Assembly: GCA_031412675.1 (NCBI GenBank) | Contig: JANODL010000152.1 | Coordinates: 5,018-69,017 of the forward strand | Reading direction: 5' to 3' | From: Acidobacteriota bacterium | GTDB lineage: Bacteria > Acidobacteriota > Blastocatellia > Pyrinomonadales > Pyrinomonadaceae | Length of the DNA: 64,000 bases | In this document: piece after piece, positions 1 through 59,854 of the stretch | Position numbering within the stretch: the first letter of the stretch is position 1 | Layout of the letters: the number at the start of each line of letters is the position of its first letter | Notes under the pieces: model-generated | What the model saw: the letters and a program-made list of their open reading frames with translations, nothing else | Told to the model about the DNA's origin: nothing | Databases searched by the model: none | Translations under genes and position numbers: made by a program

Positions 1-223
1 TTTCAGAGATTTTTAATTCTTTGTAAGCCGGTTCGACTTTCCGCAAAACATCGAACGGCGAGAGATTCGCTTTTTTGAGCAATTCCCGAAGTTTTTCCTC
101 TGAAAGCGCATCAATAAAATAATTGACTTTTCGGTAATCAACGCCGTTTTCCTCAAACAATTTGTTCAATTTGCGGCAAGTCGTGCAAGTCGGTTTTTCG
201 TAAACGGTAATTTTCTCTGTCAT
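1..223 (-). CDS. ArsC/Spx-family glutaredoxin-like protein, N-terminal part (C-terminus lies outside the window)
   Basis: Hand translation from ATG at 223-221 gives MTEKITVYEKPTCTTCRKLNKLFEENGVDYRKVNYFIDALSEEKLRELL... The CxxC near the N-terminus and the overall pattern are typical of ArsC/YffB-family proteins. It is missing from the ORF track because the window edge truncates it. Confidence 0.7.
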   Translation of the reverse strand, partial: MTEKITVYEKPTCTTCRKLNKLFEENGVDYRKVNYFIDALSEEKLRELLKKANLSPFDVLRKVEPAYKELKISE

Positions 224-231
224 AAATAGAT

Positions 232-370
232 GATTGGAGCGCAAGCGTCCTCGCTTGCAATGCGTCGCGTTTTTGGCGGCGCAAACATCTGCGATTTATT
301 TTCAGTCTTCGGGTTAAAGAAATACTTGTTCGCTTCGCTCATTGCAAGCGAGGACGCTTGCGCTCCAGTC
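232..370. mobile_element. REPIN/MITE-like element, family 1, copy A
   Basis: Terminal inverted repeats GATTGGAGCGCAAGCGTCCTCGCTTGCAATG (about 232-262) and CATTGCAAGCGAGGACGCTTGCGCTCCAGTC (340-370). Each end contains its own hairpin, GCAAGCG-N3-CGCTTGC. Related copies lie at 9149-9279 and 31011-31203. Confidence 0.75.
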
Positions 371-754
371 TTAAATCATATCGCCGCGCCGCGTTTCAAC
401 CAACTTTTCGTCGTCTTTCAAACAAAACATTTTCGATTTCGTGACAAACCGCACACCCATCGGAATTTCGAGCGAAAACGACGCGCCGCGTCCGGGTGTG
501 ACATCAATCGTCAATTCCGTGTGCTGCCACGTTTCAAACTGATCTTTGGCGATATAAAAATCACAGCCGTCAATTTGCCCGAGCCAAACATCGGCGCGTC
601 CGACGATAAATTCGCCTTTCGCGTAACACATCGGCGAAGAACCGTCGCAGCAACCGCCCGATTGATGAAACATCAATTCGCCGTGCTTGGCGCGAAGTTC
701 GTTAATAATCTTTTTCGCTTCGTCGGTAACGTGAACTCTTGCTACTTCTTTCAT
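371..754 (-). CDS. DUF779 family protein
   Basis: 127 aa carrying the HQSGGCCDGS motif characteristic of DUF779. This family is usually encoded directly downstream of an aldehyde dehydrogenase. Confidence 0.8.
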   Translation of the reverse strand: MKEVARVHVTDEAKKIINELRAKHGELMFHQSGGCCDGSSPMCYAKGEFIVGRADVWLGQIDGCDFYIAKDQFETWQHTELTIDVTPGRGASFSLEIPMGVRFVTKSKMFCLKDDEKLVETRRGDMI

Positions 755-6598: not shown

Positions 6599-6607
6599 CG
6601 GCAAAAA

Positions 6608-6690
6608 TTAAAGTGCCGCGCCGACGATGTCCATTTTCGCGTAAACATTTCTTAAAGTTTCACGCGTTGTGAGACGTGCTTTTTCCGCAA
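6608..6690 (-). pseudogene. diverged relic of the trpS 3' end (last ~27 codons plus stop)
   Basis: By-eye alignment to 8148-8231 (the real trpS 3' end). About three quarters of ~84 nt are identical, including a run of 31 out of 32 (CGCGCCGACGATG(C/T)CCATTTTCGCGTAAACAT). It translates to ...AEKARLTTRETLRNVYAKMDIVGAAL* versus the real ...AEKARIIARETLRDVYAKMGIVGATN*. Confidence 0.6.
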
Positions 6691-6738: not shown

Positions 6739-8121
6739 TTAAGGTTTTTCATTTTCAAGTTTTATGAAAACGCCTTGCTTAAAACGCATTTTGATGTTTT
6801 TTATTTGAGTGAAATCAGCAAGCGGATTTTTGTTCAGAACAAGAAAACTTGCTTCATAATTCTCTTGCAGTTTGCCGATTTTTCGAGTCGGGAAAATTGC
6901 TTGCGGCGTTGTTTCGACAGCAATTTTCAGTGTCGTTAGATTATCGAAAATCTTATTTTCCTGAAAGAATAAAATTTCAGGATTGACCGTTTTGCCGAAA
7001 TTATCTAAACCGAACGCGAGCCGCACGCCGCTCTGGTGCATTTCATTGAATAATTTTTTGTATCTTTCGAGAACGCGCTCGAATCTTTCGCGGTTAAGCG
7101 TTCCTTTTCCGCTTGCGTCGTAATCCGTCACGCTGTATATAATGCGCTGCGCCGTCGGAATGACGAAGACCTTTTTTCGGGCGGCGAGCTTGATGTCTTC
7201 GATTGTTAAATCATCCGCCGGTTTGGTTTCGAGTCTGCCGTTCCAACCGTAATTCGGCGCGTGGGCGAAACCGTCAACGCCGATTTTCAGACCGAGCCGG
7301 AAATCGTTCGCCGTTTCAACATGCGCGAAAACGCGTAAATTCGCCTGATGCGCCTTTTGCACGACATATTCGGCAACTTCGGGCGAGAGTCCATTGTTAC
7401 TTTTCTCGCCTGAAGCGGCAGATTTATTGTAATTTTCTGCGTCAAGCAGACCGATTTTTATGACATCGGGTTTGGTGGCGAGAATCTTCTCCCATTTGGC
7501 GTCAACATCTTGTTTCGAGTCGAGAAACCAGTAAGCATTATTTTCGTCGCGGCGGCTTTTTTTGATTTCGTCGATGCGCTTATAAGTTTCCGAATAACTG
7601 TAAATTCCCAGTTCCAGAGGTTCGTAGACCATAAACGGATGACCGTAAGTGCACGTCAGCATCCCGTTTGCATAGCTGACATCGAGTGCCGAAGGCTGAT
7701 TAAACCGCGCTCTGACCGCTTTTGCGCCCGTCGCGTGATTGCCTAAAACCTGCACATAAAATGTGCCTTCTTCGAGATATGCTTTGACGGTTTGGTCGAG
7801 ATTGAAAGTTCCGTCAAGATTGTGTGTGTGGGCATCGGCAAAAGGCGGAATGACGAAGCCGTTTTGAAGATCAACCGTTTCGTCAATTTTCGATGGCGCG
7901 CGCCGTGTGAAAATGCCTTTGACCGAGTAAAATGTCTGACGCTTGAATTTTTTCCCGTCAAACCAGTTTCCGTTGCTGAATTTATAAGTTTTGGAAGCGG
8001 CGACATCAACTTGCGCGTTGACTGCCGCGGAAAAGAAAAGATTCAAAATCAGGACGACTAAACCGATAATTGCTCTGCGCGAGGATGTTTTCATATATTT
8101 GTTTTGCCCAAATCCGGTCAA
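6739..8121 (-). CDS. secreted amidohydrolase family protein
   Basis: 460 aa with a signal peptide, the metal-binding motif FADAHTHN and an amidohydrolase-like C-terminus. The more likely start is the ATG at 8094 (MKTSSRRAIIGLVVL...). Confidence 0.8.
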   Translation of the reverse strand: MTGFGQNKYMKTSSRRAIIGLVVLILNLFFSAAVNAQVDVAASKTYKFSNGNWFDGKKFKRQTFYSVKGIFTRRAPSKIDETVDLQNGFVIPPFADAHTHNLDGTFNLDQTVKAYLEEGTFYVQVLGNHATGAKAVRARFNQPSALDVSYANGMLTCTYGHPFMVYEPLELGIYSYSETYKRIDEIKKSRRDENNAYWFLDSKQDVDAKWEKILATKPDVIKIGLLDAENYNKSAASGEKSNNGLSPEVAEYVVQKAHQANLRVFAHVETANDFRLGLKIGVDGFAHAPNYGWNGRLETKPADDLTIEDIKLAARKKVFVIPTAQRIIYSVTDYDASGKGTLNRERFERVLERYKKLFNEMHQSGVRLAFGLDNFGKTVNPEILFFQENKIFDNLTTLKIAVETTPQAIFPTRKIGKLQENYEASFLVLNKNPLADFTQIKNIKMRFKQGVFIKLENEKP

Positions 8122-8147
8122 ACGATTAATAGAAATCTTGATAATAC

Positions 8148-9137
8148 TTAATTCGTCGCGCCGACGATGCCCATTTTCGCGTAAACATCGCGCAAAGTTT
8201 CACGCGCAATTATTCGGGCTTTTTCCGCGCCGGTTTTTAAAATTTTATTAAGCGTTTCATCGTCAAAATCTTTAACCCGTTCCTGAAACGGCTGAAGATA
8301 TTCGATAACGGCTTCGGCGATTTCGGTTTTCAGATGACCGTAGCCTTTGCCCACGAAATTTGCTTCGCATTCTTCGGGCGTTTTTCCGGTCATCAATTGG
8401 TAAATCGTCAGCAGATTTGTAATTGCCGGACGCGTTTCGTCGAATTTGATCTCGGTTCCCGAATCGGTCACGGCTTTTTTCAGCTTCTTGGTGATCGTGT
8501 CGGCATCATCGAGCAGAAGAATCGAGCCGTTCGCGTTTTCGTCCGACTTCGACATTTTCTTTGTCGGGTCTTGAAGCGATAAAATGTTTGCGCCGACGGG
8601 CGGAATATATGGTTCGGGAACGACAAACGTTTCACCGAAATCGCGGTTGAATCTGATTGCCAAATCACGCGACAATTCTAAATGCTGTTTCTGGTCTTTG
8701 CCGACGGGAACGAGATGCGTTTGATAAAGCAAAATGTCCGCAGCCATCAAAATCGGATATGTAAACAGCCCGACTCCGGCGCGTTCGGCGTTGCCTTTGC
8801 CTTTATCTTTAAATTGCGTCATTCGTTCGAGTTCGCCCATTCTGGCAATAGTTGAAAGAATCCACGCGAGTTCGGTGTGTTCGCTGACATCCGATTGAAT
8901 AAAAATTGTCGAAGTTTCGGGATTAACGCCCGAAGCGAGATAAATCCGCGCCAAATCAAGCGTTTTTTGCTTCAAAATTTCGGGATTTTGCGGCAGCGTG
9001 ATCGCGTGAAGATTAACGATGCAGTAAAAACTTTCGTATTCGTCCTGTAACGCCACCCAATTTTTGAGCGCACCGAGATAATTACCGAGATGAAGATTTC
9101 CAGTCGGCTGTGCGCCGCTGAAGATTCGTTTTTTCAT
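8148..9137 (-). CDS. trpS: tryptophan--tRNA ligase
   Basis: MKKRIFSGAQPTGNLHLGNYLGA... (HIGH-type motif) and KMSKSD. The 14-codon N-terminal extension in the ORF track runs into the repeat element and was rejected. Confidence 0.95.
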   Translation of the reverse strand: MKKRIFSGAQPTGNLHLGNYLGALKNWVALQDEYESFYCIVNLHAITLPQNPEILKQKTLDLARIYLASGVNPETSTIFIQSDVSEHTELAWILSTIARMGELERMTQFKDKGKGNAERAGVGLFTYPILMAADILLYQTHLVPVGKDQKQHLELSRDLAIRFNRDFGETFVVPEPYIPPVGANILSLQDPTKKMSKSDENANGSILLLDDADTITKKLKKAVTDSGTEIKFDETRPAITNLLTIYQLMTGKTPEECEANFVGKGYGHLKTEIAEAVIEYLQPFQERVKDFDDETLNKILKTGAEKARIIARETLRDVYAKMGIVGATN

Positions 9138-9148
9138 AGGAAAAAAAT

Positions 9149-9279
9149 GACTGGAGCGCAATCGGCTCGATTGCAACATCGCGTTTTTCAGCGATGTAAC
9201 GGCGGTTGCCCTGAAAGCAAGTTGATTTTATCTCAACTGTCTTATTCGCGTTTTTCGACGAGCCGATTGCGCTCCGGTC
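9149..9279. mobile_element. REPIN/MITE-like element, family 1, copy B
   Basis: GACTGGAGCGCAATCGGCTCGATTGCAAC ... CGAGCCGATTGCGCTCCGGTC. It lies between the M50 protease stop (9284) and the trpS start (9137), 11 nt from the trpS ATG. Confidence 0.75.
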
Positions 9280-9283
9280 GAGA

Positions 9284-9979
9284 TTAAAACCAAGGCGTAA
9301 CCAAAAGGTAATTAACAATCGCAAAAACGGGTGTCATAATCAGGCGGACGATTCCGAAGTAAATCAAAGCCATCAGAATAATAAAGCCGTATTGCTCCAT
9401 CATATCGAAAAACGGCTGGAAACTCGCGGGTAGAAACGTTGATAGGACCTTGCTTCCGTCAAGCGGCGGAAACGGCAAAAGATTGAAAATCGCCAGCGAA
9501 ACATTGAGGAAAATCATATAATACAACAGCGTTACAAAAATTTTCGGCAAGCCGTCTTGAACATTTTCGGAAGTAAAAATTTGATAAGAAAGCAAAAGTT
9601 TGAAAATTGTAAAACCGATTATCGCCAGTATTATATTTGCCGCAATTCCGGCAATCGAAACCATCACGTTTGCCTGTTTGTATTTCGTCCATTTGCTCGG
9701 GTTGACGGGCGTTGGTTTGCCCCAACCGATGAGCGGAATAGTTGCCAAAGCTCCGCCGACCGCGCCGAAAATGAAACTGATAATCGGTAAAAGCAGAGTC
9801 CCGATCGGGTCGGTATGAGCGACCGGATTGAGCGTCACGCGTCCGAGCAGATAAGCCGTATCGTCGCCGTATTTATAAGACATCCAAGCGTGTCCGGCTT
9901 CGTGGGCGGAAATCGCCAGAAGCAGAACAACCATATAAATCACTAAATTTGAAACTAAATCTATCAAATTTATATCCAT
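9284..9979 (-). CDS. site-2 protease (M50) family membrane metalloprotease
   Basis: 231 aa, polytopic, with HEAGHAW (HExxH) in the first TM region and LLPFPPLDGS (an LDG-type motif). Confidence 0.8.
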   Translation of the reverse strand: MDINLIDLVSNLVIYMVVLLLAISAHEAGHAWMSYKYGDDTAYLLGRVTLNPVAHTDPIGTLLLPIISFIFGAVGGALATIPLIGWGKPTPVNPSKWTKYKQANVMVSIAGIAANIILAIIGFTIFKLLLSYQIFTSENVQDGLPKIFVTLLYYMIFLNVSLAIFNLLPFPPLDGSKVLSTFLPASFQPFFDMMEQYGFIILMALIYFGIVRLIMTPVFAIVNYLLVTPWF

Positions 9980-10181
9980 CGCGTTTTTCTCCGTTAAAAT
10001 ATTACCCGAATTTGCAAGTTATCACTCAATTTTGTTAGTGTCAAAACAAAGAATTTTCGTTGTTTTTAGAATTAAATTGTGCCATTCTTTTAGCGCAAAA
10101 GAAAATTCCAAATTCCATATTTCAAATTCCAAATTATTTCAATCTGGAATCTGGAATCTGAAATCTGAAATCTGAAATAAT

Positions 10182-16122: not shown

Positions 16123-16202
16123 AGGTCTTTGGTCTTTGGCTTTTGGTTTTTGGAAGAAACATTCAGTTTCAGAACCAAAACCAAAGACCAAAAGCCAAAG
16201 AC
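16123..16202. repeat. heptamer-array hairpin (GGTCTTT/GGCTTTT units versus CCAAAGA units) between convergent genes
   Basis: GGTCTTTGGTCTTTGGCTTTTGGTTTTTGG ... CCAAAACCAAAGACCAAAAGCCAAAGACC. An imperfect palindrome that probably acts as a bidirectional terminator. Confidence 0.7.
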
Positions 16203-16238
16203 CCGATCAGTAACCGAAATTATTAAAACCGGCTGATA

Positions 16239-22074: not shown

Positions 22075-22211
22075 GCCGGGAGCGCACGCATCCCTGCGTG
22101 CTGAACGCAGAGCGTTCAAAAAGCCTTGTTTGTCAATTCAGGTTTCTTCTTAACAAACGCTTTTACGCCGCGAAGCGCGACGTAGTACGCAGGGATGCGT
22201 GCGCTCTTGGC
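22075..22211. mobile_element. REPIN/MITE-like element, family 2, copy D
   Basis: GCCGGGAGCGCACGCATCCCTGCGTGCT ... AGTACGCAGGGATGCGTGCGCTCTTGGC. Each end carries the hairpin GCACGCA-N4-TGCGTGC. A second copy, internally inverted, lies at 42388-42524. Confidence 0.75.
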
Positions 22212-29912: not shown

Positions 29913-31011
29913 ATGGAATTAAACGATTTACAGACAAAATACGAAGAAATAAAAGAGAAAGTTACCCAACTTGGGAGGTTTCTTTGACGCGCCTCGGAAA
30001 CAAGCGGAACTTGAGAAATTAGAAAAACAAATTTCCGAACCCGATTTTTGGAACGATTCGGAAAAAGCCCAAAAAATCGTTCAGCAGCGAAGCCGGATTG
30101 AAAAGGCTCTGGAACAGCAGGAAAATTTTGAAAAGTCGGTTTCCGACGCGGAAGTTTTAATCGAATTTGCCGCTTCGGACGAAAGCTCTTTCAAGGAACT
30201 TGAAAATTTAATCAATCGTTTGGAAGGCGAAGTTTCACTTGCCCAAACGCAGAGCTTGCTGTCGGGCGAAACCGATCCGAACAACGCGATTTGTTCGATT
30301 CAATCGGGCGCGGGCGGCACCGACGCGCAAGATTGGGCGCAGATGCTTCTCAGAATGTATCTGCGTTGGGCTGAACGCAAGGGTTTTAAGGTCGAGATAA
30401 TAGATGAACAATCGGGAAGTGAAGCGGGAATCAAGTCGGCGACTTTTCGCGTCGAAGGCGATTACGCTTACGGACTTTTGGCAAATGAAGCGGGCGTGCA
30501 TCGCCTTGTGAGAATTTCGCCGTTCAATTCGGGCGGAAGCCGCGAAACTTCGTTTGCTTCGATGTTCGTTTCCCCCGAAATTGACGAAAATATCGAGGTT
30601 GATATTCAGGACAAGGATTTGCGGATTGATACTTATCGCTCGTCGGGCGCGGGCGGTCAGCACGTCAATGTGACTGATTCGGCGGTCAGAATCACGCATT
30701 TGCCGACAAATATTGTCGTCACTTGTCAGAATCAACGTTCGCAGATTCAGAACCGCGCCGTCGCAATGCAGGTTTTGCGTTCAAAACTATACGAACTCGA
30801 ACTCGAAAAACGCCGCGCCGATTCTGCCGATCTGGAAGCGACCAAACAGGATATTTCGTTCGGTTCGCAGATTCGCAACTACGTTTTGCATCCGTATCGC
30901 CTGGTTAAAGACACGCGGACAAAGTTTGAAGTTTCGGACGTTGAAGCCGTGTTAGACGGCGACATTGACGATTTTATAAAGGAATTTTTGATATTTAAAA
31001 AAGGCGTTTAG
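29913..31011 (+). CDS. prfB: peptide chain release factor 2, with programmed +1 frameshift at CTT TGA C (29982-29988)
   Basis: ORF0 is MELNDLQTKYEEIKEKVTQLGRFL* and has an internal SD-like GGGAGG just upstream of CTTTGAC. The +1 frame continues DAPRKQAELEKLE... and contains the SPF and GGQ motifs. Confidence 0.95.
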
Positions 31012-31203
31012 ACTGGAGCGCAAGCGGCTCGCTTGCCTGAGCGTTTGCTTCAAACGCGAAAAAGCGTCGGTCAACTCGAAACTTAATATGAAACGAAATG
31101 CTCGAGCGCACATAGTTTCGCTTAATTTTAACTCTTTGAGTAATGAACACTTTTTCGCGTCAAAAAACGACGCTCAGGCAAGCGAGCCGCTTGCGCTCCA
31201 GTC
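31011..31203. mobile_element. REPIN/MITE-like element, family 1, copy C
   Basis: GACTGGAGCGCAAGCGGCTCGCTTGCCTGAGCG ... CGCTCAGGCAAGCGAGCCGCTTGCGCTCCAGTC, a perfect 33-nt TIR. It abuts the prfB stop codon and ends 14 nt before the ftsK ATG. Confidence 0.8.
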
Positions 31204-31217
31204 TTGAGTTTACAAAA

Positions 31218-33737
31218 ATGGCGACGACAGCGACAAGAAAAAGACAAACTTCGACGAAACCTAATTCGCGCAGCAATGAAATTATCGCGGTAATTTTACT
31301 GGCTCTGGCAGTTTTAGTTTTTCTTTGTCTGGTTTCTTACAATCCGATGGACCCGACTTTTAACACGGTTTCGTCGCAAAAAGTTCAAAATTTGATTGGC
31401 GTGGTCGGCGCGAATTTTGCCGAATTTTTAGTTTCGATTGTCGGTCTGACTGCGTATCTTTTGCCCGCTTTGATTGTTTTAATGGCGTGGCGCGTTTTTC
31501 GCGCAAAAGATTTACGGCTTTCGCTCGCACAGCTTTTCGGTTATTTTCTTTTCGTTTCTTCGGTTTCGAGTCTTGCCGCGCTGTTTGGTTTTCAAGGCGG
31601 AATGTTAGGCGCGTTTTTCTATAAAATTTTCTTCGGTTTGCTCGGCACGATCGGCACGACGATTCTTTTGGCGGTTTTTACAATCACCTCGCTTTTGCTC
31701 ATCACGAGTCTTTCTTTAGCCTCTTTGTTCGGAAGTTTCGGAATGGCTTTTGAAAATTTCGGGATTCATTTTAACGAATGGCTGACAAAAAGACGCGAAC
31801 GCAGTGCCGAAAGAAAAGCGCAAGTTACCGAAAAAACGGATAATGTATCCGAACCGCAAGCCGTCAAGACGGACAAAGCAAAACCGACAATTTCGTTGGG
31901 CGACATCGTTCCCGCCGCAACCGAAACAAAAAAAGTGAAGATTCGTGAAACGGTTGCCGCGCTTTTTGAAGATCTGAAAAAACCGCCTGAAAAGACGGAA
32001 GAAAAACCTGAAATAATCGAAGAAGAGATTGTTTTGGAGTTGCCCGAAGAAGAGGCAATCATTCCGACAATCTCGGCTTCGGAAGAAAATTTTGAAGAAC
32101 CCGAACAGCTCTTTGAAATTGAAAACGAGCGCGTTGATTTGGTCGCCGAAAGCGAAAAAATCCCGATTACGCCGATTCAGCAAACAGACGAATTGAACGA
32201 AGAATTTCTCGAAATTCCCGAAGCGGAAGCCGAAATCATTCAGCCGAAAAAGCCGCAGAATTTTGAAAATTATATTTTGCCGCCGACTGACTTTTTAACG
32301 CCGGCAATGGCGCGAATCGAGCAAAAAGACGAAGAACTTCTCGCCATCGCGCAGGAATTAACCGATAAAACCAAAGAGTTTAACGTCACCGGACGCGTGA
32401 TGCACATCTGTCAGGGTCCGGTCGTCACGACTTACGAATTCAAACCCGATCCGGGCGTGAAATATTCGCGTGTGACGGGTTTGGCGGACGATTTATGTCT
32501 TGCCTTAAAAGCCGAATCAATCCGCATTGACCGCATTCCGGGCAAGGCGTTTGTCGGCATCGAAGTTCCGAACCGCGAACGCGAAACGATTCAACTGCGC
32601 GAAGTTATCGAATCGAAAAAATTCAAAGATTCAAATTCGATGCTTTCCATCGCGCTCGGCAAATCAATTGACGGGCTGAATTACGTCGCGGATCTGGCGA
32701 AAATGCCGCATTTGCTCATCGCGGGCGCAACCGGCGCGGGAAAATCGGTCGGCGTTAATACGCTTATCGTTTCGATTTTGTATAAAGCGAAACCCGACGA
32801 AGTAAAGCTCATTATGGTTGACCCGAAACAGGTCGAACTCGGTATTTACGCCGACATTCCGCATCTTGCCACGCCGATTATTACCGACCCGAAACGCGCC
32901 GCGATTTCGCTGAAATGGGCAGTCGGGCAAATGGAAAGACGTTATAAAGATTTGGCGGGTTGGGGCGTTCGCAATATTGACGGTTATAACGAACAAGTTA
33001 AAAAACGCAACGACAGCGGACAATTCGACGACAATGGCGAACCTTGGAAAAAATTGCCGTTTATCGTGATTATCATTGACGAACTCGCCGATTTGATGAT
33101 GGTGGCGGGCAAGGATGTCGAAGAATCAATTACAAGATTGGCGCAAATGGCGCGTGCCGTCGGAATTCATCTGGTTTTAGCGACACAAAGACCTTCGGTT
33201 GATGTCATTACGGGTTTGATTAAAGCGAATTTTCCGTCGCGCATTTCGTTCCGCGTTTCGTCAAAAGTAGATTCGCGCACGATTATTGACGCAAACGGCG
33301 CGGAAAGTCTGCTCGGCAAAGGCGATATGCTTTTTCTGCCGCCCGGAACGTCGAATTTGATCCGCGTTCACGGTGCGTTTGTGGATGAGAAGGAAATTCA
33401 TAAAATCGTCGAACATGTCAAAGCGCAGGGCAATCCCGAATACGACACGACCATCACGAAAACCGACGATGAACTCGACGATTCGGGCGATTTGCCGGGC
33501 AAAAAAGACCCTTTGTTTTGGGACGCGGTAAAAAGTGTCGTGTCGGCAAAACGCGCTTCGACTTCGCTTTTGCAGCGTCATTTACGCATCGGTTACGGAC
33601 GTGCCGCCGCGATTTTGGACGCGATGGTGCGCGAAGGCTACATCGGCGAAATGGACGGCAGCACACGCGCCCGTCCGATTTTGCAGAAGGCTTACGAAGA
33701 TTTGCAAGACATCGAAGAAATGAATAATCAGCAGTAA
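31218..33737 (+). CDS. ftsK: DNA translocase FtsK
   Basis: N-terminal TM helices, an acidic linker, a motor domain with Walker A GATGAGKS, and a gamma domain LLQRHLRIGYGRAAAILD. The start was moved to MATTATRK because the 25-codon extension in the ORF track lies inside the repeat element. Confidence 0.95.
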   Translation: MATTATRKRQTSTKPNSRSNEIIAVILLALAVLVFLCLVSYNPMDPTFNTVSSQKVQNLIGVVGANFAEFLVSIVGLTAYLLPALIVLMAWRVFRAKDLRLSLAQLFGYFLFVSSVSSLAALFGFQGGMLGAFFYKIFFGLLGTIGTTILLAVFTITSLLLITSLSLASLFGSFGMAFENFGIHFNEWLTKRRERSAERKAQVTEKTDNVSEPQAVKTDKAKPTISLGDIVPAATETKKVKIRETVAALFEDLKKPPEKTEEKPEIIEEEIVLELPEEEAIIPTISASEENFEEPEQLFEIENERVDLVAESEKIPITPIQQTDELNEEFLEIPEAEAEIIQPKKPQNFENYILPPTDFLTPAMARIEQKDEELLAIAQELTDKTKEFNVTGRVMHICQGPVVTTYEFKPDPGVKYSRVTGLADDLCLALKAESIRIDRIPGKAFVGIEVPNRERETIQLREVIESKKFKDSNSMLSIALGKSIDGLNYVADLAKMPHLLIAGATGAGKSVGVNTLIVSILYKAKPDEVKLIMVDPKQVELGIYADIPHLATPIITDPKRAAISLKWAVGQMERRYKDLAGWGVRNIDGYNEQVKKRNDSGQFDDNGEPWKKLPFIVIIIDELADLMMVAGKDVEESITRLAQMARAVGIHLVLATQRPSVDVITGLIKANFPSRISFRVSSKVDSRTIIDANGAESLLGKGDMLFLPPGTSNLIRVHGAFVDEKEIHKIVEHVKAQGNPEYDTTITKTDDELDDSGDLPGKKDPLFWDAVKSVVSAKRASTSLLQRHLRIGYGRAAAILDAMVREGYIGEMDGSTRARPILQKAYEDLQDIEEMNNQQ

Positions 33738-42387: not shown

Positions 42388-42524
42388 GCCGGGAGCGCAC
42401 GCATCCGTGCGTGCTGCGTCGCTAGAAAAAGCGGCGTAAAAGCGTTGCTCGATCTTGACTCGACATTCAGCGCAATGATTCGCGCTCGTGCGCTCAGCAC
42501 GCAGGGGATGTGTGCGCTCCCGGC
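42388..42524. mobile_element. REPIN/MITE-like element, family 2, copy E
   Basis: GCCGGGAGCGCACGCATCCGTGCGTGCTG ... CAGCACGCAGGGGATGTGTGCGCTCCCGGC. The internal GCGGCGTAAAAGCGTT matches the reverse complement of the interior of copy D. Confidence 0.75.
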
Positions 42525-42945: not shown

Positions 42946-43133
42946 CTCGATTTCGGATTTCGGATTTCGGATTTCGGATTGTTTGAAACACCAAAAACGT
43001 AATTGAAAATGAATCAATCCGCGGCGCAAACCAATCTCAAATCCCAAATCTCAAATCGTAAATCCAATTATACTCTTGACCTCTGCGCTTGGAAAAGTAA
43101 AACTTTAATAAAAACCTAAAAAGGAGAAAAAAA

Positions 43134-44080: not shown

Positions 44081-44170
44081 TAACGCAAAGACGCAAAGAT
44101 GCAAAGGCGCAAAAGTTAAAATAATTATTAGAATCTCTTTGCGTCTTTGTTCCTTTGCGTCTTTGCGTTA
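44081..44170. repeat. heptamer-array hairpin (CGCAAAG words)
   Basis: The outer 18-bp stem is perfect: TAACGCAAAGACGCAAAG (44081-98) pairs with CTTTGCGTCTTTGCGTTA (44153-70). The inner part is imperfect. Confidence 0.7.
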
Positions 44171-44183
44171 ATTAATTAAGATT

Positions 44184-44618
44184 ATGACAAACGAAAATTT
44201 ACAACTGATTTACACGCTTCTTTGCGACGATGTGCGGATCGAGATGGGCAACAAAATCTCTCTGATGGGAGTTTTTCAAAACATTATGGTCGAGAAATTG
44301 CCGATTTCATTGATAAAATTTGCGGTTGTCAATCATTGGCGCGGCGCGGGCAATCATCACACCGAAGTGCGGATTCTCTCGCCGAACAAAAGCAATCTGG
44401 TCGTCACATCCCAACCGACGCATATCGAACTCGCCCCGGGCGGTTTTACCGACAATGTTTCGTTTTTCGTTAATGTCGTCTTTCCGTCGGCGGGAACTTA
44501 TTGGGTTCAAACGCTTGCCGATGCACGTCTGCTCGAAGAATTTCCGCTGATTGTCACAGATGTCAATAATGTCGAATCAATGCAGACAACCGAGGAGATT
44601 TCGGAAACCATCAATTAA
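44184..44618 (+). CDS. hypothetical protein (144 aa)
   Basis: A clean ORF bracketed by two large heptamer hairpins. No family recognised. Confidence 0.5.
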   Translation: MTNENLQLIYTLLCDDVRIEMGNKISLMGVFQNIMVEKLPISLIKFAVVNHWRGAGNHHTEVRILSPNKSNLVVTSQPTHIELAPGGFTDNVSFFVNVVFPSAGTYWVQTLADARLLEEFPLIVTDVNNVESMQTTEEISETIN

Positions 44619-44750
44619 AGTAAAAAGTAAAAAGTAAAAAGTAAAAAGTAAAAAGTAAAAAGTAAAAAGTAAAAAATTGCGTCTTACCTGAAACTAATTT
44701 CGAGTAAGACGCAATTAAATTTTTGCCTTTTTACTTTTTACTTTTTACTT
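44619..44750. repeat. composite palindrome: (GTAAAAA)x7 array, 13-bp central hairpin, (CTTTTTA)x3 array
   Basis: AAGTAAAAAGTAAAAAG... (44619-44676), then AATTGCGTCTTAC-loop-GTAAGACGCAATT (44675-44716), then TTTTTGCCTTTTTACTTTTTACTTTTTACTT. It lies between convergent genes. Confidence 0.8.
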
Positions 44751-47632: not shown

Positions 47633-47643
47633 AATTTAAAAAT

Positions 47644-47712
47644 GGAGAGTGGAGAGTGGAGAGTCAAGGAAAATTCTTAAACTCTCCACTCTCCACTTTT
47701 AACTCTCCACTC
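47644..47712. repeat. heptamer-array hairpin (GGAGAGT words)
   Basis: GGAGAGTGGAGAGTGGAGAGT (47644-64) pairs with ACTCTCCACTCTCCAC (47681-96), and a third partial unit lies at 47702-12. It lies between the S9 peptidase stop and the UXS start on the same strand. Confidence 0.75.
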
Positions 47713-50017: not shown

Positions 50018-50571
50018 AATTTAGTCTTCTTCATCACTCAAAGCCTCGCGCAAGGCTTCGAGTTCGGGCAAAACAAGCAAATCTTTCGTGCGTCCGGCGG
50101 CGCGTTTGGCATTTATTAAATCGTCGAGTTGGCAAAAATATTTTGAATTGATTATAAAGTATCTATGCCCGAAAATCCGCACGACAGAGAAGATTCGGAA
50201 AAAGAAAACGATAAAAACGCCGAAAAATCTGCGCGGCGCGAAGACCAAAAGCGGCGAAGTTATTATTACGACGACGCACACGGTTACGAAGTTTATCAGC
50301 CGGAGGAAGAAAAAGAGGAGAAAAGGAGCGGAGGAGAAGAGGAGATAAGTTCTTAAGTGATAAGAAACTGTTTTAAAACTCGAAAGCTGTTGAAAATCTC
50401 GAATTATCAACTTTCAATTAGCAATTAGCAATTAAATTCAGAAGTAATAATCGTTTAATAACCTCAAAAGTAATTGGTAATTGATAATTGATAATTGATA
50501 AAGCGGTTTTCACCTTTAATCATTTTGAGTTTTCAAACTGCTTTTTAGAAAAATCTCCTCTTCTCCTCTTC

Positions 50572-56539: not shown

Positions 56540-58126
56540 ATGAAATTTAGAATTCTTGTTAATGGTGTTTTCCGGTTTCCTTTCCAAACAAAGCATTTAG
56601 CCGTTTTCGTCTTAACTGTTTTGTTCATTATCGGTTTGCCTGCCCTCGGGTTGGCAGGCGATGACGTGCAGCAAATCGAAGAAGATACCCGTCAACAAAT
56701 CAAACAAGCGGAAAAATTAGCCAAAAAAGGCAACGTCGCCGAAGCCGAAAAGATTTTGCGTAAAATAATCGAGCGCAATCCGTCGCATTCGACCGCCAAA
56801 CTAAAACTTGCCTACATACTTCTCAAGCAAAAGCAGTTGCTCGGAGCCTACGAATTGTCGTTTGAAATCGCTAAAAACGAACCGAAAAATTCGTATGCCT
56901 ATGCCGTTTTGGGCGCAACGCTTTTAAGTGCGGGAAATTTTAAGGAAGCTGACAAAATTTTAGTCGCCGCGATAACTTTGAAGAAAAGCGAAGCCTTAGC
57001 TTGGGCAGGACTCGGAATGTTGGATTTTTACGAAAACCGCATTTCGGATTCGATAGAAAATCTGAAGACAGCGGTTTATTTCGACAGCGACGAGCCGGAT
57101 TATATCTTTGCGCTTGCCCAAGTTTCGGCGCGGGCTGAAAAATACAAGGAAGCGGCAGATGCCTATAACATATTTTTGCAGGTTTCACCGCAAACCGACA
57201 CCGAAAGACGCGACCGCATCAAAGGACTTATCAATTTTCTCCGCTTTTTGGGCGCAAAACGCTCGCTCTATAATTTGGACGGCGGCTCCCGAACAGTAGT
57301 TTCGTTCGATTTGATGAGAGACCGTCCCGTCATCAAACTCAAGGTCAATAACAAAGAAGAGCCGCTGAAATTTGTTTTGGATACCGGCTCGGGAATTTCC
57401 GTTATCTCCAGAGAAACGGCAGAACGCTTGAAAATCAAACCGATTACACGCGGCGGATTGGCACGGGCAATCGGCGGCAACGGAAAATTTGAAATCGTCT
57501 ACGGCTTTTTGAAATCGGTTAATATCGGCGATGTTCAAATAAAAAGCGTTCCGGTTTATATCCGCGAATTTCATTCCAACGATGAAAAAATTGACGGCTA
57601 CATCGGATTGTCGCTGATTTCAAAATTTTTGACGACGATTGACTACGGTGAATTGACCTTTTCGTTGGTTAGAAAAGACATTGCGGACGAACAGAATCTC
57701 GTTGAAAACAAAAGTTTGTTTTTACCGCTTCGACTGACTTCGAGCGGATTTTTGAGCGGCGAAGTTCAGCTTGAAGGGGTCGAAAATTCACTCAATTTTA
57801 TTGTTGATACAGGCGCGAGCATTTCGGTTATTTCCGATGAAGTCGCTAACCTTTCGGGAATCAGCCGCTTTGTCCGCAATGAAAAAATGCGGGTTGTCGG
57901 AGCCGCCGGCATAACGGAAAACGTGTCATCGTTTTTGCTTCCGCGCATTACTTTCGGCACTAATTCGCGTGAAAGCATCACGGCAATCGCGCTTGATTTG
58001 GACATCATCAACGAGGCTTCGGGTTTTCGTCAGGCGGGAATTTTGGGCGGAAATTTTTTGAAGAATTATCGTTTGACGTTTGATTTTAAAAACTCGAAAG
58101 TAATTTTTACGCCGATCAGAAAATGA
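56540..58126 (+). CDS. TPR protein with two retropepsin-like aspartyl protease domains
   Basis: An N-terminal TM/signal, TPRs, then two D-T-G sites (FVLDTGSGISVIS and FIVDTGASISVIS). Confidence 0.75.
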   Translation: MKFRILVNGVFRFPFQTKHLAVFVLTVLFIIGLPALGLAGDDVQQIEEDTRQQIKQAEKLAKKGNVAEAEKILRKIIERNPSHSTAKLKLAYILLKQKQLLGAYELSFEIAKNEPKNSYAYAVLGATLLSAGNFKEADKILVAAITLKKSEALAWAGLGMLDFYENRISDSIENLKTAVYFDSDEPDYIFALAQVSARAEKYKEAADAYNIFLQVSPQTDTERRDRIKGLINFLRFLGAKRSLYNLDGGSRTVVSFDLMRDRPVIKLKVNNKEEPLKFVLDTGSGISVISRETAERLKIKPITRGGLARAIGGNGKFEIVYGFLKSVNIGDVQIKSVPVYIREFHSNDEKIDGYIGLSLISKFLTTIDYGELTFSLVRKDIADEQNLVENKSLFLPLRLTSSGFLSGEVQLEGVENSLNFIVDTGASISVISDEVANLSGISRFVRNEKMRVVGAAGITENVSSFLLPRITFGTNSRESITAIALDLDIINEASGFRQAGILGGNFLKNYRLTFDFKNSKVIFTPIRK

Positions 58127-58198
58127 GTAAAGAGTGGAGAGTAGAGAGTAAAGAGTTTGGCTTGACTCTCCACTCTCCACTCTCTACTCTCTACTCTT
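58127..58198. repeat. heptamer-array hairpin (GAGAGTA/GGAGAGT words)
   Basis: GTAAAGAGTGGAGAGTAGAGAGTAAAGAGT ... GACTCTCCACTCTCCACTCTCTACTCTCTACTCTT. It uses the same word family as 47644-47712. Confidence 0.7.
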
Positions 58199-59777: not shown

Positions 59778-59845
59778 GGATTTGGGATTGAGGATTGCGG
59801 ATTTGGGATTTATTTTTCAAATCCGCAATCCTCAATCCCAAATCC
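59778..59845. repeat. perfect 27-bp hairpin built from GATTTGG/GATTGAG/GATTGCG heptamers
   Basis: GGATTTGGGATTGAGGATTGCGGATTT (59778-59804), a 14-nt loop, then AAATCCGCAATCCTCAATCCCAAATCC (59819-59845). It begins 2 nt after a stop codon and ends 10 nt before the next ATG. Confidence 0.85.
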
Positions 59846-59854
59846 CAAATCAAA

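Follow-up and report, generated by a model that had tools for sequence, protein, structure and literature searches.

REPIN/RAYT systems have been described in Pseudomonas and Enterobacteria, those of E. coli being the BIMEs and the REPtron, where REPs paired in inverted orientation form a long hairpin, the REPINs lie extragenically and mostly between co-directional or convergent genes, and a single-domain Y1 transposase is flanked by its cognate REPs (Bertels & Rainey 2011, PMC3116915). The TnpA-REP proteins of subclass 2.4 (Bertels group 4) are marked by the motifs NH[IFV]H, WQ and YIxNNP and are scattered over various phyla (Table 1 in Quentin et al. 2018, PMC6006769). The acidobacterial TIRYT, or class 3 TnpA-Y1, are Y1 transposases with flanking repeats of secondary structure that occur in up to hundreds of copies (Di Nocera et al. 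2013, PMC3733652; Quentin et al. 2018). The elements described here, located in a window (the whole stretch of DNA that was analysed) of 64 kb, are a REPIN/RAYT system by most of the defining features, the GTAG foot excepted, in place of which GGAGC(GC) was found.

The original prediction had placed three elements of 131-193 bp in spacers of the window, and all three were present when the sequence was read. The elements and the genes beside them were as follows.

2-223, minus strand: gene of glutaredoxin fold, cut by the window edge (Pfam PF00462, E 6e-7)
232-370: REPIN copy 1, 139 bp, arms 232-262 and 340-370
371-754, minus strand: DUF779 gene (Pfam PF05610, E 2e-47), its stop codon TAA (371-373) abutting copy 1
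8148-9137, minus strand: trpS (Pfam PF00579, E 9e-79)
9149-9279: REPIN copy 2, 131 bp, subtype AATCG
9284-9979, minus strand: M50 peptidase gene (Pfam PF02163)
29971-31011, plus strand: prfB downstream of its frameshift site (Pfam domains PCRF and RF-1)
31011-31203: REPIN copy 3, 193 bp, arms 31010-31067 and 31147-31204
31218-33737, plus strand: ftsK (Pfam FtsK domains)

A search of the window with the 16-mer GACTGGAGCGCAAGCG, allowing up to 3 mismatches, returned six matches forming exactly three inverted pairs, where 0.47 matches were expected by chance (100 shuffles) and none of the 100 shuffles reached six. Inverted termini were thus confirmed in all three copies, with arms of 31 nt in copy 1 (97% complementary) and 58 nt in copy 3 (86% complementary) according to the repeat finder, and of ~21 nt in copy 2 by reading the sequence. 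Each REP module had a 9-nt foot, GACTGGAGC, and behind it a 7-bp stem GCAAGCG/CGCTTGC with a loop of 3-4 nt, and was complete in five of the six window arms. In copy 1, for example, the left REP hairpin occupied 241-258 with the foot GATTGGAGC just before it. A hairpin GCAAGCG-N3-CGCTTGC had been proposed for every terminus, which was borne out for the five complete arms once a loop of three or four nucleotides and a GCAATCG stem in copy 2 were admitted, while the right arm of copy 2 was degenerate. Copy 2 carried GCAATCG in both arms, the left hairpin being compensated (CGATTGC) and the right one decayed (GCAATCGGCTCGTCGAA). The GTAG tetranucleotide of classical REPs was absent from the foot, where the nearest resemblance within GACTGGAGC was CTGG/GGAG.

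Likeness among the three copies was limited to the terminal 25-55 nt. When they were aligned in both orientations the centres did not align, and there was neither a common internal sequence nor a consistent orientation. Within each arm of the longer copies there was another small hairpin as well as an A/T run. With two inverted modules around a variable centre, the whole element is able to fold as one long hairpin, and the REPIN architecture first suspected, in which a pair of inverted REP-type hairpins closes a single long one, was recovered with arms of 21-58 nt and predicted folds of -62 to -107 kcal/mol. The predicted RNA folds reached -70.4 kcal/mol (z -9.7) for the transcribed minus strand of copy 1, -62.3 kcal/mol (z -7.9) for the minus strand of copy 2 and -107.4 kcal/mol (z -14) for copy 3.

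The window also held two copies of a second family in addition to the three of the first.

22075-22211: family-2 REPIN, hairpin GCACGCA-TCCC-TGCGTGC, compensated, right foot degenerate
42388-42524: family-2 REPIN, second copy, GCCGGGAGCGCACGCATCCGTGCGTGC ... GCGCTCCCGGC

Family 2 had the GGAGCGC foot of family 1 but a different prefix (GCCG) and stem (GCACGCA/TGCGTGC), and its architecture was similar, including the second hairpin and the A-run.

The genes on either side of each copy were co-directional as proposed, and Pfam supported the identities given to the DUF779, M50, trpS, prfB and ftsK genes, while the gene called ArsC-like matched Glutaredoxin and not ArsC. In the direction of transcription the elements ended 8, 11 and 14 nt before the downstream ATG in copies 1, 2 and 3, in agreement with the distances first read. 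Two copies abutted the upstream stop codon, with 0 nt between stop and element in copy 1 and a 1-nt overlap in copy 3, the corresponding distance in copy 2 being 4 nt. The first G of copy 3 was shared with the prfB stop codon, TAG giving its G to GACTGG. The spurious N-terminal extensions expected in the open reading frames were found at 8148-9179 for trpS and 31143-33737 for ftsK. On the mRNA, the tract AUUUUUUU was seen by reading the sequence directly after the copy 2 stem and before trpS.

No Shine-Dalgarno-like sequence was seen before the glutaredoxin-fold gene, trpS or ftsK (224-231, 9138-9148 and 31204-31217). The leaders of these three downstream genes were short and A/U-rich, and the distance from stop to start in relatives was often only 1-5 nt. 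Taken together, these features of the leaders and junctions suggest that initiation in the lineage of the window may be coupling-dependent or independent of a Shine-Dalgarno sequence.

Orthologous spacers were compared for presence or absence of the elements, a check put forward with the original prediction. The order prfB-ftsK was kept across Pyrinomonadaceae, and the spacer was without an element in seven relatives with FtsK identities of 81-89%. At these empty sites the gap to the ftsK start was ~20 nt, or 31-36 nt from the end of the prfB alignment, and prfB was ~4 codons longer than in the window. A family-1 REPIN was found at the same spot in one relative (L201, FtsK 88% identical to that of the window), where the prfB stop codon was again a TAG with its G common to the element. 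Both flanks and both arms were common to these two filled sites, and the centres differed in length and sequence. The order M50-trpS was likewise kept, with a spacer of typically 1-15 nt in 11 genome loci and the best 24 metagenome loci, as in TAA CTTTTATTT ATG in L357 and TAG TTT ATG in many loci, and within this set an element of the copy 2 type was present at this junction in the window only. Both spacers were therefore empty (1-36 nt) in close relatives, which identifies the elements as insertions, polymorphic at two of the three window loci, prfB-ftsK and M50-trpS. With many copies found elsewhere, this was the reverse of the pattern that the original prediction had set against itself, namely a lack of other copies and conservation at the same locus.

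Palindromes unrelated to these elements were observed at the M50-trpS junction in other lineages (L278, L358, L359 and L361). The M50-trpS spacer of L278 (MAG SZAS-13), at ~700-1100, contained three tandem units of ~100 nt (CCCCCAATAATTCCCCTCCTTCAAAAGGAGGGGTGGCGCGCCAGCGCCGGGGTGG...), a different repeat.

Many intergenic spacers of the window contained a further type of hairpin, in which tandem 7- or 8-mers are arrayed in inverted orientation to form the two arms.

10103-10178: tandem-array hairpin
16124-16203: tandem-array hairpin
42949-43065: tandem-array hairpin
44083-44168: tandem-array hairpin
44617-44750: tandem-array hairpin
47643-47712: tandem-array hairpin
50415-50501: tandem-array hairpin
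58125-58197: tandem-array hairpin
59778-59851: tandem-array hairpin

Each had its own unit, such as GGATTTG x5 / CAAATCC x5 or AAAGTAA x8, and they folded at -43 to -55 kcal/mol (z -8 to -12). Similar hairpins with other units occurred in the orthologous prfB-ftsK spacer of L204, L211, L215, L224, L231, L232 and L236, and also in L359. We know of no described family like them, and their form raises the question of an origin by slippage on a hairpin and of a role as terminator. A direct repeat of 86 nt (79% identity) was also noted at 6603-6688 and 8143-8228, the latter covering the 3' end of trpS and the former lying in the spacer after the ORF 6739-8121, and is possibly left over from a duplication of the end of trpS.

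Outside the window, one genome per species was scanned with the pattern GGAGCGCAAGCG-N3/4-CGCTTGC. The module was present in at least 116 loci (L001-L116) next to unrelated genes in many genomes, as would be expected of the dispersed repeat first proposed, and nearly all were Acidobacteriota MAGs named Blastocatellia, Pyrinomonadales or Pyrinomonadaceae. The few loci from other phyla among the matches listed could be chance matches or MAG binning errors. The GCAAGCG stem was dominant in L001-L116 by construction, since the search pattern contained that hairpin. When arms were chosen by the foot alone, 112 of 172 distinct arms paired at seven of seven positions.

The matches listed included 84 paired elements, which fell into size classes of 60-80 nt (43 elements), 120-155 nt (31) and 180-234 nt (6). 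The smallest class had just two hairpins within a 9-bp outer stem, and many of its members paired two compensated subtypes, AAGCG...CGCTT with AACCG...CGGTT, which resemble the Y/Z REP pairs of E. coli BIMEs. The longer classes, to which the three window copies belong, had a second small hairpin and an A-run in each arm (e.g. AATGAGCGCGGAGCGCGAAAAA) and a variable A/T-rich centre.

Sixty-eight elements among the matches listed had a called gene on both sides under a crude longest-ORF rule, including 44 in co-directional, 15 in convergent and nine in divergent spacers, and none of the 68 was intragenic. Co-directional elements lay a median of 9.5 nt from the upstream stop and 63.5 nt from the first possible downstream start, and the stop was nearer than the start in 35 elements and the start in nine (sign test p = 1e-4). 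The stop codon was completed by the first bases of the element in seven of the 44 (TGA|CTGG, TAG|ACTGG). A position 8-14 nt before a start codon, which the original prediction took as a hallmark of the elements, is therefore true of the window copies but not a trait of the family, members of which sit beside the upstream stop. The distances in the window follow from insertion into operon spacers that are just 1-36 nt in relatives. REPs of other phyla are likewise described as lying right after stop codons (PMC3733652).

Partial tandem copies of the foot (GACTGGACTGGAAGTGACTGGACTGGAGCGACTGGAGCGC) were observed at 4437-4480 of L005 and in the left flanks in L004, L027, L029, L049 and L069, and some elements were nested in the foot of another copy, e.g. 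in L004, with flanks GGAGC|element|GCTCC. Judging from their arrangement, cleavage or insertion that recurred at the foot may have left these traces.

No transposase had been noticed in the window, and tblastn returned the same result, with no RAYT encoded in the 64 kb (best E 0.048), so that the cognate enzyme was seen in relatives alone. A motif screen of the fetched loci identified ORFs for Y1 transposases adjoining the elements in L004, L005, L023, L035 and L094. The RAYT matched Pfam Y1_Tnp (PF01797; E 1.5e-9, 38.5 bits against a cut-off of 23) and the NCBIfam equivalog NF047646, 'REP-associated tyrosine transposase' (95.1 bits, cut-off 80), while the IS200 model gave 24 bits for the RAYT proteins, below its cut-off of 55. 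The HUH motif and the catalytic tyrosine were recognized in PNHLHFL ... YIENNP, and the sole relative in the PDB was E. coli TnpA-REP (4ER8, E 1.9e-9). By motifs only, the RAYT would fall into subclass 2.4 or Bertels group 4. A class 3 or TIRYT acidobacterial transposase was considered as the cognate enzyme and ruled out, as the YIENNP and WQ motifs together with a score above the NCBIfam RAYT cut-off indicate class 2.

A RAYT gene with the same REP on both sides, a further feature to be looked for, was found in related Pyrinomonadaceae (L005/L117, L118-L122 and L133). Upstream of the L005 gene were a REPIN and a single REP ending 9 nt before the ATG, and downstream a REPIN started right after the stop codon, the TGA of which overlapped GACTGG. 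In L133 the RAYT gene lay inside a single pair of REPs with the polarity of REPIN arms, an arrangement resembling a full-length parent element of the miniature ones. The MAG VAR_34_metabat_1, among those closest to the window, contained both an FtsK fragment 89% identical to that of the window (L222) and a RAYT flanked by family 1 (L121).

A scan with the L005 protein gave 80 RAYT loci. All RAYTs at least 62% identical to that of L005 (L117-L122, L133) had the GACTGGAGC foot in their flanks, and the repeats flanking more distant RAYTs kept the core GGAGCGC and differed in prefix and stem. Among the 217 distinct arms defined by a GGAGCGC within 450 nt of the RAYT gene at these 80 loci, 133 (61%) had a perfect 7-bp stem, compared with 0.3% of shuffles. 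Across the RAYT loci there were 17 different, perfectly complementary stems behind an invariant GGAGCGC foot. A constant foot and a covarying stem would be expected if recognition depended on the foot and on the shape of the hairpin and not on the stem sequence. Different REPs with their own RAYT paralogues were present within one MAG (L140/L142), and likewise in L136/L156. Family 2 of the window would presumably have a RAYT paralogue of its own, by analogy with other families with the GGAGCGC foot.

We consider it most likely, with a probability of about 0.85, that the three elements are non-autonomous REPINs, for which a RAYT gene located elsewhere in the genome supplies the enzyme that cuts and copies them in single-stranded form. 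A RAYT of the L005/L121 clade would reside in the source genome and mobilize the window copies in trans, recognizing the foot and the hairpin, cutting the single-stranded hairpin at its foot and copying the REPINs as has been proposed for Pseudomonas and E. coli. On this model the RAYT would bind and cleave the REP as single-stranded DNA.

A possible though rather doubtful alternative is that the window copies are fossil REPINs that are no longer mobile, the RAYT having been lost or no longer recognizing them, and persist because excision is rare or because the host has put the hairpins to use. The unrelated centres of the three copies and the broken right hairpin of copy 2 fit such an age, as does copy 3, which is orthologous to the L201 element and thus older than the split from a relative with FtsK just 88% identical and a diverged centre, and the 64-kb window encodes no RAYT. 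However, copies 1 and 3 have arms with 97-100% complementarity over 31-35 nt, which speaks for recent copying or ongoing maintenance, and closely related MAGs retain intact RAYT genes flanked by the family-1 REP (L121). The density of arms also argues against fossils, as the window had ~94 per Mb and the Pyrinomonadaceae loci fetched for unrelated reasons 13-16 per Mb.

As non-autonomous REPINs inserted into operons, the elements could also act at the RNA level, and the effects on translation or mRNA stability in the original prediction are plausible on the basis of the modelled folds. The elements would be co-transcribed within the DUF779-grx, M50-trpS and prfB-ftsK operons with stems of 21-35 bp. 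By analogy with E. coli REPs, these stems may block 3'-exonucleases and so protect upstream mRNA ends, the perfect duplexes of 21-35 bp could be substrates for RNase III, and ribosomes terminating 0-4 nt before the stem may stall, which would lower the products of the DUF779, M50 and prfB genes. REPs located at most 15 nt from a stop codon in E. coli reportedly reduce expression of the upstream gene via stalled ribosomes (Mol Cell, 2015). The tract AUUUUUUU gives copy 2 the form of an intrinsic terminator ahead of trpS, and this stem and U7 may partly terminate transcription before that gene.

REPINs might further be tolerated or used in translationally coupled junctions as a translation-dependent switch and would then not be neutral junk, a proposal that we regard as unlikely. 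The distance from the M50 stop to the trpS start is 1-13 nt in relatives, whereas in the window it is 146 nt in sequence and ~15 nt at the closed base of the stem, so that looping out of the hairpin could preserve the coupling of termination to reinitiation. The base of the stem would be melted by a ribosome that terminates 0-4 nt ahead of it, and the A/U-rich leader of the essential gene downstream (trpS or ftsK) would be freed. If this were true, the adjacency to stop codons and the stops donated by the elements (7/44) would be its footprint.

A classical MITE of the terminal inverted repeat type, i.e. an element derived from a DDE insertion sequence by internal deletion, Correia-like and mobilized via its GACTGGAGCGC termini, is very improbable. 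Perfect terminal inverted repeats and a length of 130-190 bp resemble those of MITEs, but no target-site duplication was detected in the 84 elements among the matches listed, where flanking 2-5-mer matches equalled the permuted control (k=3: 3 vs 1.8). Such an absence is in keeping with HUH/Y1 transposition and speaks against a DDE-type MITE. A weak preference for flanking bases was seen, Y...R, which lengthens the palindrome by one base. All long elements bounded by these termini contained a RAYT among the loci examined, and each arm is a self-folding hairpin with a covarying stem, as expected for recognition of single-stranded DNA by a Y1 enzyme but not for DDE sites. Correia elements of Neisseria and ERIC are also hairpin repeats of 100-190 bp that are co-transcribed with their neighbours and possibly processed by RNase III. 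A TA target duplication or a DDE-type origin, and the lack of a RAYT, set them apart from the elements described here.

Rfam at gathering thresholds identified two tRNAs in the 64-kb window, as did ARAGORN, and no family at the elements. Promoter and terminator consensus scans around each copy gave nothing above shuffles at the element ends, long stems being invisible to such scans, and the simple terminator scan flagged just small internal hairpins of copy 3 and no site ending at an element terminus. Host-encoded, locus-specific RNA structures (attenuators, terminators or processing sites) that are not mobile DNA are therefore hardly credible, since, for all the stability of the hairpins inside operons and the AUUUUUUU tract directly after the copy 2 stem, the same spacers are 1-36 nt and free of elements in close relatives and the same termini stand beside unrelated genes in many genomes. 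An integron attC site, with conserved ends and a variable centre, was also rejected, as the termini GACTGGAGC...GCTCCAGTC lack the attC core (R''/R', RYYYAAC ... GTTRRRY, downstream of cassette ORFs) and the neighbouring genes have housekeeping functions and keep their synteny.

The non-autonomous REPINs of the window add a REPIN/RAYT system to Blastocatellia, one of the major soil lineages of Acidobacteriota and represented mostly by uncultured MAGs, and the 80 RAYT loci with an invariant foot and 17 compensated stems make up a natural data set for following the joint change of a Y1 enzyme and its DNA hairpin. For annotation, the repeats cause false N-terminal extensions, as in trpS and ftsK, and can supply stop codons, as in prfB here and in the RAYT gene itself; they probably also break MAG assemblies. 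The insertions into junctions of 1-10 nt before trpS and ftsK offer a simple test case for the tolerance of operons to very stable hairpins of 130-190 nt. The kind of element is known, but no earlier description of REPs from Blastocatellia, Pyrinomonadaceae or Chloracidobacterium was found among the papers searched. The Y1 transposases with repeated flanks that had already been reported from other Acidobacteria are of a different class.

A Y1 transposase with repeated flanking structures is common to the system described here and to the acidobacterial TIRYT or class 3 TnpA-Y1 (PMC3733652; Quentin et al. 2018). Class 3 is distinguished by YV..EQ as its Y motif, by W[TA] and by a CnGA foot, whereas the enzymes here have YIENNP and WQ and reach the RAYT equivalog cut-off. 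The motifs of subclass 2.4 were matched by NHLH/NHIH, FWQHE and YIENNP, and the RAYT length of ~200 aa is similar to the subclass median of 194 (PMC6006769). Subclass 2.4 REPs are described as forming long hairpins, the foot being GT[AG]G or a 'double foot' (PMC6006769), while those here have a GGAGC(GC) foot and a 7-bp stem. The inverted pair of REPs that closes a long hairpin, the extragenic location mostly between co-directional or convergent genes, the single-domain Y1 transposase flanked by cognate REPs, the absence of a target-site duplication and several REP families per genome, each with a RAYT paralogue, are all shared with the systems of Pseudomonas and Enterobacteria (PMC3116915). 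The elements of the window differ from these in their host, an acidobacterium of the Blastocatellia, in the foot, which is GACTGGAGC / GGAGCGC and not GTAG, in a centre that varies in sequence and length even within 64 kb, and in the second hairpin and A-run in each arm of the longer classes.
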